Part shown: in pieces, positions 30,643 to 34,839 of the stretch
Layout of the letters: every line of letters starts with the position of its first letter
Numbering within the stretch: position 1 is the stretch's first letter
Origin: Trichodelitschia bisporula
Lineage: Eukaryota
Direction: 5' to 3'
Length of the DNA stretch: 64,000 bases
Assembly (NCBI GenBank): GCA_010356995.1
Contig: ML996704.1
Span: 124,001 to 188,000 of the forward strand
Notes under the pieces: model-generated
Seen by the model: the letters and a program-made list of their open reading frames with translations, nothing else
Databases searched by the model: none
Told to the model about the DNA's origin: nothing
Position numbers and translations under genes: made by a program

Positions 30643-31610
30643 CACGGGCGCCGAGAAGGGTCCGTCCGCGGACGGGTTGAGGGTGAGGGACCGTAGCCGG
30701 TGCTGATGGACAGGGGACTGTAAGCAGCGTTAAGCTGACGGATGAGTTGTACACAAAAGTCTCAAAGACAGAGCGATCGCAAGACGAGCAGTTCGGCGCA
30801 CGTGTGGGAGGAGCAGTTGTTGGTATCGTGGTGGGACGGGGGGGGTGCGCTTGAACGGTGACAATCGGGATAGGCCGAGATGCAGGAGGTCAAGAGTGTT
30901 GAAGGAGAGGCGGTGCGTGATCTGAAAGTTACAGGAGAGGGGGCGGGTTTGTTGCTGATGTTTGTGAAGAGAGAGCTGCGGGTGACAAGCGACGTCCCTC
31001 TCTTTGCCCTTGGTGTTGACTTGGGATCCCGTGCCGTTCTCGTCTCGTCCCCTTTTGGGATTGGGGGGGTTGTGTTGGGGTTGTTCCTTCTCTTCTTCGC
31101 TCCTCATAGAGACGTTGGCGGCGCTTTCCCCTCCTAAAGCCAACCCCCTCTACTCCCTCCTCTACCCCCAGCCCCCTAATGAAACTCTCAGCCTTGGCAT
31201 TTTTATGTGCGCCTCATCCGTGTGCGGCTTGACAGTTGTGGCTTGTACTTCTACGTGCCTTATTCGACGGTAAGGCGCGCCCTAAGGCATCAATCCTAAT
31301 TGACAGCTCCACCAACTCCCTCTCCATCTCCATCCCCATCCATCTCATCCTCATCTCCCATCATCACCAACCACCAGCCTATCCGCCCTCTCCCTCGCTT
31401 CCACCTCTCTAGTCGCACGCACTGCATATCCACCCCAAATCTACAGGCCCACCCCTCGCATCACCCAGGAACACACGCTGCACCACCATGTCCCTGCGCC
31501 GCACCTAATCGGGCCACCTTCACCAACACCGCATCGCCTTCCGCACGTGACAGTACCGCATCACCACCACCATCACCATAACCATCACCATCCCCACCAC
31601 TACCACCACA

Positions 31611-32135
31611 ATGTCCACCCCCGCCCTCCTCAAATCCGTCCTCCCCCCCCTCTTCCTCGCCCTCCTCCTCTACCTCGCCACCGCCGTCCTCCTCCCCCTC
31701 TACCGCCGCCACCGCGCCCGCTACTCTCAATACCTGCCCGTTTCCACACCAGGCAGCGGGCCCTTCACCAACCCCCTCGCCGCCTTCGGGCCCCCTTCCT
31801 ACCGCGAAAGCACCAGTTTCACAACCCGCCTCACAGCACCACTGATACTGCTCCTGCCCGCGAGCTGGGCAGAGCGCTGGGAGAGGAGGCGGAGGGTGGA
31901 GACTGCGGAGGAAGAGATGGGTCCGCCGGCGGGGAGGACAGAGAGCGAGATGGGGGCTAGTGATACGGATTTTGATTCCGAGCTTGAGGATTTGGTTGTG
32001 CCCGGACGGAGGGATGCGTTGAGTCTTGATGCAAGGCCGGCGAGTGCGGGGAGGAGGAGGGAGGAGGTTAGGCGGTTGAGTCGGGAGTTGGAGGAGGGGT
32101 TTCGGGATGATAGTGAGAGTGAGGATGGGCGGTAG
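31611..32135 (+). CDS. Small single-pass membrane protein, conserved fungal hypothetical
   Basis: N-terminal hydrophobic helix, then RRHRARYSQYLPV, and C-terminal RRLSRELEEGFRDDS. Confidence 0.75.
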   Translation: MSTPALLKSVLPPLFLALLLYLATAVLLPLYRRHRARYSQYLPVSTPGSGPFTNPLAAFGPPSYRESTSFTTRLTAPLILLLPASWAERWERRRRVETAEEEMGPPAGRTESEMGASDTDFDSELEDLVVPGRRDALSLDARPASAGRRREEVRRLSRELEEGFRDDSESEDGR

Positions 32136-32288: not shown

Positions 32289-33671
32289 CTACTTCTTTTC
32301 GCGCTGCCCATACGCCTTTGTCGCATAATCCCCCTTGTGCACAATCAGATCCTCAGGCCGGTAATCCTCCTTGCCGGAGAAGTAGCTCTGGAGGATGGCC
32401 TTTGTCCCCTCGGCATACCGCTTCTGCGCATCGATGCTCGTCCCGCTCATATGCGGCACCGTCGCATTGCCTCCACCCCACGGGTTGGCTGCATACCGCA
32501 GCGGGTGATCCTTCGGCGCCGGTTGCGGGTACCACACGTCGCCGCCGTAGCCGCGCAGGTGGCCTGACTTGAGCGCCTCAGCGACATCCTCCTTGACGAC
32601 GATGGCGCCACGGGCGGTGTTGACGAGCCAGGAGCCTGGATGCATTAGTTTCGAAGAGCGAAGAGGAAAAGAGAGGACCTACCGGGCTTCATCTTGGAAA
32701 TAAGCTCCTTGTTAAACAACCCCTTCGTCTTCTCATGCAGCGGGCAGTTGATAGTGACCACATCGCACTGGCCCAGCATCTCCTCCAGGCTCTCCACCCG
32801 GCGGCACCCGATCTCCTTCTCCTTCTCGGCGCTCAGCGGCTGGTAATCGAAGTACAGCAGCTCCTTGCAGTCAAACGCCCTGAGGCGCCGGAGCACACGC
32901 TCGCCGATACGTCCCACGGCCACGGTCCCGACAACCTTGTTCTCGAGATCATACTCATTCTTCGCCACGGCGGCCACGTTCCACTCCCCAGCGGCGATCT
33001 GCTCGTGCGCCGGCACGAAGTTCCGCACCAGCACGAGGATGGTCATGATGACGTGCTCGGCGACACTTACGACGTTGGATCCCGTGACTTCGGCGACCGT
33101 GATACCGCCATTCGTCTTGTTCGCGGCGTCCAGGTCGACGTGATCCGAACCGATGCCCGCAGTGACGGCGATCTTGAGCTTCTTCGCTTTGGCAAGGCGC
33201 TCCGCGGTGAGGTATCCGGGGTGGAAGCTGCATCCTCAGTCATACGCCTCAATGGGGATACGAGCCCACTCACGGCGTCGTAATAATAACTTCCGCATCC
33301 ACCAACTCCTTATCAAACATCGAATTCTCGCCCTCCTTATCACTCGTCGTCACCAGTGTATGCCCCTGCTCCTCAAGCCACTTCCGCAGACCGAGCTCAT
33401 TCTCCGTCGTGCCTAGCAGATTCGGCTCCTGCTCTGCATGCTCAAAGCCCTGGGTTATCAGCCTCGTCCACTCGGCCCGGGGATCTCTTACATCATACAA
33501 GACCATCAAAACTTTGCCCTGTCGTGCCGCACTCGCTGTTAGCCATCTCGTCGAAGCCGGCGCTCGCACGCCCGTCCACTGTCGCGCTGCACCTGCTGAC
33601 GCAGGGCGCAGCAACCGCGAGGCTGTGGTGGGGAGGCGGGAGGCGGAGGAGCGGAGGAGATGAGATACCAT
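32289..33671 (-). CDS. FDH1: NAD-dependent formate dehydrogenase
   Basis: [95 protein letters not shown]. Introns at 33450-33491, ~33228-33272 and ~32637-32682, plus an optional 33519-33668. Confidence 0.97.
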
Positions 33672-34839
33672 TGTGACTGTGGTTGTTCCAACAAAAGGAG
33701 ACTACTGCTCAAAAGGGGGGAGACTGTTATATGCGTCTGCCGCGTCAGCCAAGTGCACGTCGTTGACATCACACCCGCATGCCCAGGGTCCATCACATAC
33801 CTGGCGTAGATAAGCCTATGGGGATCGCAGGTAGTGTATTGGTTACAATGACTTCAATTCCGTGTCGGAGGTGCAAGCTTATAAACGAGATCGAGGCAAT
33901 CGTGTAGATGAGAGCAATTGCTCATCAACGCGCTGCCCGGGTTATATACCTCGCTTCATTCCCTTTCGCCCGCGAGCTTGTCATGGTGACACTTCGTGGC
34001 CCATCGCCACGAACTTCCCGTGGCGTCATCAAAGCGGGGTTGAACACGGCAACCCAGGTTGTCCCCCAGGCTGAGGGCGGCCTGGGTGGGGTTGCGAGCC
34101 CCGATCCCCGCGACGTAATACTGCATGGTTGCGGGCGGAGAAGTTCTCGGCACGGCGAACTGCTCGGATTAGGACATTATTCGATTTTGGGGAGCTTAAA
34201 CCCGGATCTGGGGCGAACGGGGATCAACTTGCCGCTTCGGGCAACAGTTCTATCGTCACTGCATTAGTTAGTCGTTTCGGGTTCGACTCCGACATCGGCA
34301 GCCACCCGTACTTTAGCCACAGTGGGCCAGCTAAAGCTTCGCTGCGCAACGCCGATGCTTATCCCGACTGTAAACCCGCCGCTATGAGCCGCAGCAGTGT
34401 AATCAGACCTCTTCTTATTCCCTCTTCCGCAGAACCGGTCAAGTAAGATGGTGATGCAGGCACGGCAGGTACCGTAAGTGCCGCAAGCGCGGGGTGCAAA
34501 CTGCTTCCTGCGTGCTCCACGTGCGCGGCCATCGAACGCGTGCGAGTGCCGCGTCCAGGGCTCCCGACGTCAATCAGGCCAGTCTGGCTCTCTGAAAGCA
34601 AGCTTTCTTGAACACGGCATCGCGGCGCGGCATCCCTTTTGTCCACGGCGACCCCGCAGACGAGACGTTCGCCCTAGGAACGTCCAGACGGGCTTGGGAC
34701 GCGAGGTGTTTCAGCCCTGTTTGTGCGCGGGGCTGGGAGGGGGCCGTGGGTTTGGAGAGGCTAAGGACGGAGGGTTTGCGTTGCTTTTTGCGGGAGCGAG
34801 GGATAAGGCTGGATTGAAGTGTTCTGGATAGTGGAAGCA

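Follow-up and report, generated by a model that had tools for sequence, protein, structure and literature searches.

The formate dehydrogenase (FDH) gene of Trichodelitschia bisporula carries, immediately after its start codon, an intron of 150 nt that is really spliced out and that, when read through, gives an N-terminal peptide with the character of a mitochondrial presequence. This segment is probably a conserved dual-use "coding intron", through which one gene can make both a cytosolic and a mitochondrial FDH. The gene lies on the minus strand of the window, by which we mean the whole 64-kb stretch of contig ML996704.1 that was analysed (64,000 nt), and all positions given below are those of the window.

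Joining the exons by their coordinates (Table 1) yields a product of 365 residues that is identical to P0006, a protein named formate dehydrogenase of Trichodelitschia bisporula by both NCBI and UniRef and carrying the catalytic and NAD-binding domains PF00389 and PF02826 in the precomputed Pfam assignments. The Aspergillus nidulans protein P0141 ('formate dehydrogenase aciA') is 88% identical to P0006 over 100% of its length, and a protein search with the short form returned 5754 matches at E<=1e-100. The product is an NAD+-dependent formate dehydrogenase of the D-isomer-specific 2-hydroxyacid dehydrogenase superfamily, its enzymatic function being predicted from sequence, and the window holds a single FDH copy. 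Downstream of the gene, on the opposite strand, an open frame at 31304-31960 (+) contains a long His run and Pro-rich stretches.

Table 1. Features of the FDH gene in the window, listed in the direction of transcription.
Feature	Positions	Strand	Basis
TATATAA, TATA-like box upstream of the shorter 5′ end	33942..33948	-	sequence; putative promoter role
5′UTR intron, donor GTATGT at 33800, acceptors at 33737 (64 nt) and 33724 (77 nt)	33724..33800	-	contig joints 33736->33801 and 33723->33801
Start codon ATG, final three bases of its exon, common to both possible isoforms, context CACAATGG	33669..33671	-	sequence and contigs
Phase-0 intron, 150 nt, also an in-frame presequence-like ORF of 50 codons	33519..33668	-	skipped in contigs of both runs; translation; homology to the extension of relatives
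5′ splice site GTATCT, equal to Val-Ser codons, no G at +5; GTATTT in relatives	33663..33668	-	sequence
Branch-point-like GCTAAC; CTAAC starts 24 nt from the 3′ end and equals Leu-Thr codons	33538..33543	-	sequence; position matched in 44/49 distinct segments
3′ splice site CAG, equal to the final Gln codon of the presequence	33519..33521	-	sequence and contigs; followed by GGC AAA GTT
Exon, 27 nt, encoding GKVLMVLYD	33492..33518	-	contigs
Intron, 42 nt, GTAAGA...CCCAG	33450..33491	-	contigs
Exon, encoded peptide ending in ITTP	33274..33449	-	contigs
Intron, 46 nt	33228..33273	-	contigs
Exon	32683..33227	-	contigs
Intron, 47 nt	32636..32682	-	contigs (joint given with cut +1)
Last coding exon, stop codon TAG at 32291-32289	32289..32635	-	contigs and sequence

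Splicing was assessed on assembled contigs from two runs (X1 and X2) of one sample in one study, whose RNA status is not on record. Contigs of both runs join 33669 to 33518, skipping exactly the 150-nt segment with GT..AG ends on the gene strand, and an X1 contig of 2105 nt as well as X2 contigs also skip the three short coding-region introns and the 5′UTR intron. The exact removal of five GT..AG introns is the pattern of spliced RNA and not of DNA, so the segment is a real intron; likewise, since the spliced joint is seen, the protein that starts with MGKVL is a real product. This leaderless short form, identical to P0006, is the start which the initial annotation had given for the spliced message. 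The same annotation had proposed that one gene makes cytosolic and mitochondrial FDH through regulated splicing. Here, a genuine intron with its joint in the contigs of both runs is established, but an intron-retaining transcript was not seen in this organism's contigs: looking up junction against retention in the contigs returned the 33669/33518 joint and no retained form, and no contig of either run covers 33542-33663, a result that cannot prove absence given that contigs drop rare variants. The public model is the short P0006 and no long form of Trichodelitschia bisporula occurs among the matches listed in the protein searches.

The contigs also bear on the transcript ends. The single donor of the 5′UTR intron is joined to either of two acceptors spaced by 13 nt; both runs contain the 64-nt form, but only X2 the 77-nt form. 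The X1 contig reaches 46 nt or more upstream of 34000, beyond the TATA-like box, and X2 cover ends near 33890; the longer 5′ end of X1 suggests an upstream start or read-through. At the other end, the same X1 contig runs about 607 nt beyond 32200 (to about 31593), which corresponds either to a very long 3′UTR or to a merger with a convergent neighbour transcript.

Inspection of the segment itself confirmed its first description base by base. The ATG and the GTATCT that follows it, the GCTAAC, the closing CAG and the subsequent GGC AAA GTT all lie at the positions compiled in Table 1, and the 150 nt are a multiple of three (3n), stop-free and in frame with the ATG. The retained reading consists of exactly the 50 residues that had been listed, with eight Arg and neither Asp nor Glu, and the resulting extension of 51 residues, counting the initial Met, has the motif R-W-L-T-A near the mature start; its maximal helical hydrophobic moment over 11 residues has an uncalibrated value of 0.83. 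The segment is also, as had been noted, about three times longer than the neighbouring introns (42, 46 and 47 nt for those of the CDS, and 64 or 77 nt for that of the 5′UTR). The 42-nt intron, unusually short, is itself 3n and stop-free in frame; it encodes an acidic peptide and is probably open by chance.

The open frame by itself is weak evidence. Indeed, the segment has a G+C content of 69% and is stop-free in 42% of 5000 dinucleotide-preserving shuffles, so that an open frame is unremarkable and its significance comes from the relatives and not from the window alone. Of the two remaining forward frames, one has no stop at all and the other just one, and a 3n length is expected by chance in one case out of three. 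The composition is less common among the shuffles: 2.8% lack Asp and Glu, 0.96% are both stop-free and without acidic residues, and 0.68% have in addition at least eight Arg or Lys. A G at position +5 of the donor is important for splicing; it is absent from the donor of the 150-nt intron, whereas the four other donors of the gene all have it. The yeast donor consensus is given as GUAUGU in PMC7491326.

Among related proteins, a search with the read-through N-terminus found 497, 120 of which were listed, and most of the matches listed have 410-448 residues with an N-terminal extension; a second search with the short form returned both classes among the matches listed. The proteins fetched from both searches divide into 115 long forms, 47 short forms (35 starting with MG, 11 with MV and one with MS) and 14 models that are partial or odd. 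Going by the source names, Eurotiomycetes, Dothideomycetes, Lecanoromycetes, Sordariomycetes and Leotiomycetes are represented among the long forms. All 115 long forms start with MV, having Val at residue 2, and the residue just ahead of the mature xKVL is Gln in 91, Lys in 14, Asn in six, Asp in three and Ser in one. The presequence-like character that the initial annotation had attributed to the retained peptide is borne out by these extensions, which lack acidic residues in 94 of 115 cases (mean R+K of 7.7) and contain R-x-[LF]-[TS] within their last 16 residues in 113 of 115. Mitochondrial processing sites typically have an Arg at -2 or -3. Since R-x-L-T-A overlaps the branch point, its conservation is ambiguous and may partly reflect the branch rather than cleavage. 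The presequence of the window is more diverged than those of relatives, with Ser and not Phe at residue 3 and RWLTA and not RTLTA. Among the fetched proteins, P0018, P0109, P0112 and P0017 are FDH models of 518-763 residues fused to unrelated upstream or downstream sequence, and are probably mis-merged.

The DNA of relatives adds to this comparative evidence, which is strong. A scan of metagenome contigs found 252 relatives, of which the best 80 loci were kept; six were left unscored, either because no anchor was found (L016, L024, L048) or because the contig starts too late (L006, L008, L076). Among the 74 scored loci, 59 have a frame open from an ATG-GT to the codon before xKVL, eight have the ATG directly before xKVL, and seven are in another state. 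Length in multiples of three and an open frame, which had been put forward as a check on orthologous introns, are therefore kept in 59 of the 66 loci that retain a segment upstream of xKVL. Together with the window, the open loci represent 49 distinct segments, and in these the codons which coincide with splice signals are strongly biased. Val at codon 2 is GTA in 46 of 49 segments, as compared with 23 of 254 Val codons in the gene body and three of 75 inside the presequence; codon 3, where it is Phe, is TTT in 35 of 42 segments versus 21 of 61 elsewhere in the same genes; and a final Gln is always CAG (42/42), against 91 of 142 in the gene body and 30 of 75 inside the presequence. A Leu-Thr pair written CT[AG]AC is found at -24 (-21 in segments ending with Lys) in 44 of 49 segments, CTA accounting for 27 of 421 Leu codons in the gene body, and the wobble base right after CT[AG]AC varies freely. 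The window fits this pattern with GTATCT, CTAAC at -24 and CAG. In these segments the splice signals sit on synonymous codons that are rare in the rest of the gene.

Coding constraint was evaluated on 12 non-overlapping pairs of relatives having segments of equal length, with the signal positions masked. The differences at codon positions 1, 2 and 3 amount to 29, 16 and 86 (chi-square p=1.6e-14), and 81 codon changes are synonymous versus 37 that are non-synonymous. Fifteen lengths between 114 and 198 nt, all of them 3n, occur among the 49 segments; the segments were chosen for their open frame, and among the seven loci in another state only L059 has truly lost it. The third-position excess, the 3n lengths and the fixed signals, taken together, indicate that in relatives the segment evolves at once as protein-coding sequence and as intron. 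The segment of the window is homologous to this N-terminal extension, which in relatives evolves as coding sequence, as the third-position excess shows.

Both messages seem to occur among relatives. Contigs of 1.4-2.3 kb carry eight long-form loci with no intron after YD, and in all four comparisons made (L018, L003, L007 and L080 against the genomic L014, L021, L027 and L020) one or two introns of the genomic partner are missing and the segment is kept; these long-form contigs measure 1.5-1.9 kb and are presumably of RNA origin, and their partners belong to other species at 68-91% identity. At the protein level, the short P0136, from a JGI source with contigs of at most 1606 nt, agrees with the long genome model P0036 of Dissoconium aciculare at all but one of 363 mature residues; the short P0132 and the long P0003, each found on contigs of about 1.5 kb, differ in four of 366 residues. 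Long- and short-form mRNA-like contigs, probably derived from RNA, thus both occur in relatives. For the eight short-form contigs (L002, L011, L019, L026, L028, L035, L050, L053) no genomic match was found at 93% identity or above apart from the pair L011/L008, which is uninformative on the segment as L008 starts downstream of it, and no 5′UTR homology links these loci to genomic copies that have the segment. These eight loci may come from genes that never had it.

A distinct scenario is observed in loci in which one of the two uses has apparently been lost. In L012 and L017 the donor reads GTCTTC (GTA changed to GTC), there is no branch motif and the segment ends CAG GAT; in L074 the branch motif is also missing and the segment ends CAA AAC, with no AG. 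The presequence frame is open in all three. The L074 peptide resembles proteins named Aureobasidium. We note that L012, L017 and L074 are all Aureobasidium-like, and that the paralogue types ending RQNG and RQDA are both named from one Aureobasidium strain. The branch motif is also absent in L055/L062 and in L078. The reverse situation is found in L059 (198-356), where a consensus donor GTATGT opens a segment of 152 nt with an in-frame TAA, CTAAC at -24 and the CAG being kept: to judge from its sequence, the intron is kept here and its coding use lost. A third arrangement is seen in L060/L070/L071, L072 and L073/L075, whose presequence frame ends with CAG and is followed by a GT...CT[AG]AC...CAG unit of about 55-60 nt, then by xKVL; the extra unit lies at about 2150-2400 in each of them. 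Annotated long proteins of lichen-forming fungi read ...LQ|SKVL, consistent with removal of a small second unit of this kind. In such loci a single acceptor would serve both the donor adjacent to the ATG and the second one, implying alternative donors or two-step splicing.

With respect to localisation, an NAD-dependent FDH has been found in Percoll-purified mitochondria of Penicillium expansum, and the enzyme was not predicted to be mitochondrial by TargetP, Psort or MitoProt (PMC3130790). The missed prediction fits a short-form database entry.

From these observations a mechanism can be proposed in which one AUG, the last three bases of its exon, would serve two mRNAs. With the intron removed, as is seen here, the message encodes the 365-aa enzyme starting from MGKVL, which has no targeting signal and would be cytosolic; with the intron kept, reading through from the same AUG would yield a 415-aa precursor, expected to be imported into mitochondria and clipped. 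The 150 nt are an intact copy of an Arg/Ser/Ala-rich presequence-like segment, lacking acidic residues, that is conserved across filamentous ascomycetes, with its R-x-L-T-A placed a few residues before the mature start as a putative processing motif. The splice signals are accommodated inside codons, Val(-Phe) providing the donor GTAT.T, Leu-Thr the branch CTRAC and the last Gln the acceptor CAG, and the weak donor, lacking a +5 G in an unusually long intron, is a likely control point. With signals lying within codons and such a donor, the balance between splicing and retention would set the cytosol-to-mitochondrion ratio. For this organism we infer retention, import, cleavage and any regulation of splicing.

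Taken as a whole, we favour with moderate confidence the explanation that a phase-0 intron at the start codon is a conserved presequence, its splicing or retention directing FDH to the cytosol or to the mitochondrion. We lean, slightly less firmly, towards a broader evolutionary reading, in which this is an ancient dual-coding element spread over several Pezizomycotina classes, with codons for Val-Phe, Leu-Thr and Gln in a functional mitochondrial presequence doubling as donor, branch point and acceptor, and with splicing efficiency setting the split between mitochondria and cytosol. The conflict between both uses would have been repeatedly resolved, some lineages having kept the ORF and lost the signals, at least one having kept the intron and lost the ORF, and one group having acquired a small second intron that gives two donors and one acceptor.

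A less likely but quite plausible alternative is that in Trichodelitschia bisporula the segment is an ordinary constitutive intron, its frame and presequence-like composition being leftovers of ancestral dual use, and that in this species the enzyme is only cytosolic. The contigs, all spliced and at high depth, and the annotated short model agree with this possibility, as do the frequency of stop-free shuffles (42%), the divergence of the N-terminus with loss of Phe3, and the fact that lineages can lose the coding function, as in L059. However, the frame, the 3n length, the eight Arg without an acidic residue (0.68% of shuffles) and the R-x-L-T-A are all intact in the window; moreover its donor keeps the weak non-G +5, whereas in L059 the decay of the ORF came along with a consensus donor.

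Two forms could also be produced without splicing, by alternative translation initiation or by an internal transcription start as in Aspergillus fumigatus Bol3. Alternative initiation is a common fungal route to dual targeting, as stated in PMC11285713, and the X1 and X2 5′ ends do differ. We nonetheless regard this as very improbable for FDH because there is no Met at the junction: in the window the codon preceding GGC is CAG and not ATG, and Met is found at this place in none of the 115 long forms. Further downstream, the first Met belongs to the conserved VLMVLYD strand, where many relatives have Leu instead, and the splice junction itself is observed. Finally, most annotated relatives among the matches listed are long, but the notion that only the long form is genuinely made, the 150-nt intron being an artefact of assembly or annotation, has a negligible probability and is excluded by the exact GT..AG joint in contigs of both runs, in which all other introns are also removed, short forms being frequent as well among the fetched relatives (47 short versus 115 long).

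The dual-use reading has its nearest counterpart in PTC7 of Saccharomyces cerevisiae (PMC7491326). Like PTC7, FDH has an intron near the 5′ end that is translatable when retained, the spliced and unspliced proteins residing in different compartments, which for FDH are predicted. Lineages related to the PTC7 case have resolved into a non-splicing copy and a copy with a stop-bearing intron (PMC7491326), and the reciprocal losses in the FDH segment (L012, L017 and L074 as opposed to L059) resemble them. The two differ in that the retained PTC7 intron adds a transmembrane helix and spliced PTC7 is the mitochondrial form, whereas in FDH the retained segment corresponds to a whole presequence and the intron starts directly after the AUG. 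Set beside the properties of a PTC7-type case, the FDH segment is removed in vivo, is in frame, 3n and stop-free, and evolves as coding sequence in relatives. The FDH case spans several Pezizomycotina classes, and that of PTC7 part of Saccharomycotina. For malate dehydrogenase of Yarrowia lipolytica, peroxisomal and cytosolic forms reportedly arise through alternative splice sites, with no retained-intron N-terminal presequence. This is again a metabolic dehydrogenase of an ascomycete whose targeting is decided by alternative splicing, as FDH would be (PMC3372373). Aspergillus fumigatus Bol3 is likewise one gene giving mitochondrial and cytosolic forms that differ by an N-terminal targeting sequence; in that case alternative translation initiation makes use of an internal Met that is conserved (PMC11285713), whereas FDH has a splice junction and no junction Met. 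Plant mitochondrial NAD-formate dehydrogenase belongs to the same family and has an N-terminal mitochondrial leader, but in the abstract of the review PMC3347622 this leader is not reported as an intron, and the plant mitochondrial enzyme is contrasted with microbial FDH 'functioning in cytoplasm'.

A full-text search of the literature outside subscription journals did not turn up any account of such an arrangement in FDH, and the enzyme is unmentioned in the text and in the first 12 of 39 supplementary files of a paper on splicing in Cladosporium fulvum (PMC11694984). Deeply conserved functional alternative splicing is rare in fungi, and PMC7491326 names few examples, SKI7/HBS1, PTC7, MDH and GND among them. 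If true, the present proposal would extend this list by a metabolic enzyme that is directed to its compartment by a translated intron. The two size classes of public fungal FDH models, at about 365 and about 415 residues (47 and 115 of those fetched), would be explained as well, as would the FDH in purified mitochondria lacking a predicted leader (PMC3130790), and the statement that microbial FDH is cytoplasmic (PMC3347622) would be challenged. For annotators, it would mean reporting both FDH isoforms. Splice signals overlapping codons would offer a clean natural system in which to study dual constraints and their resolution.
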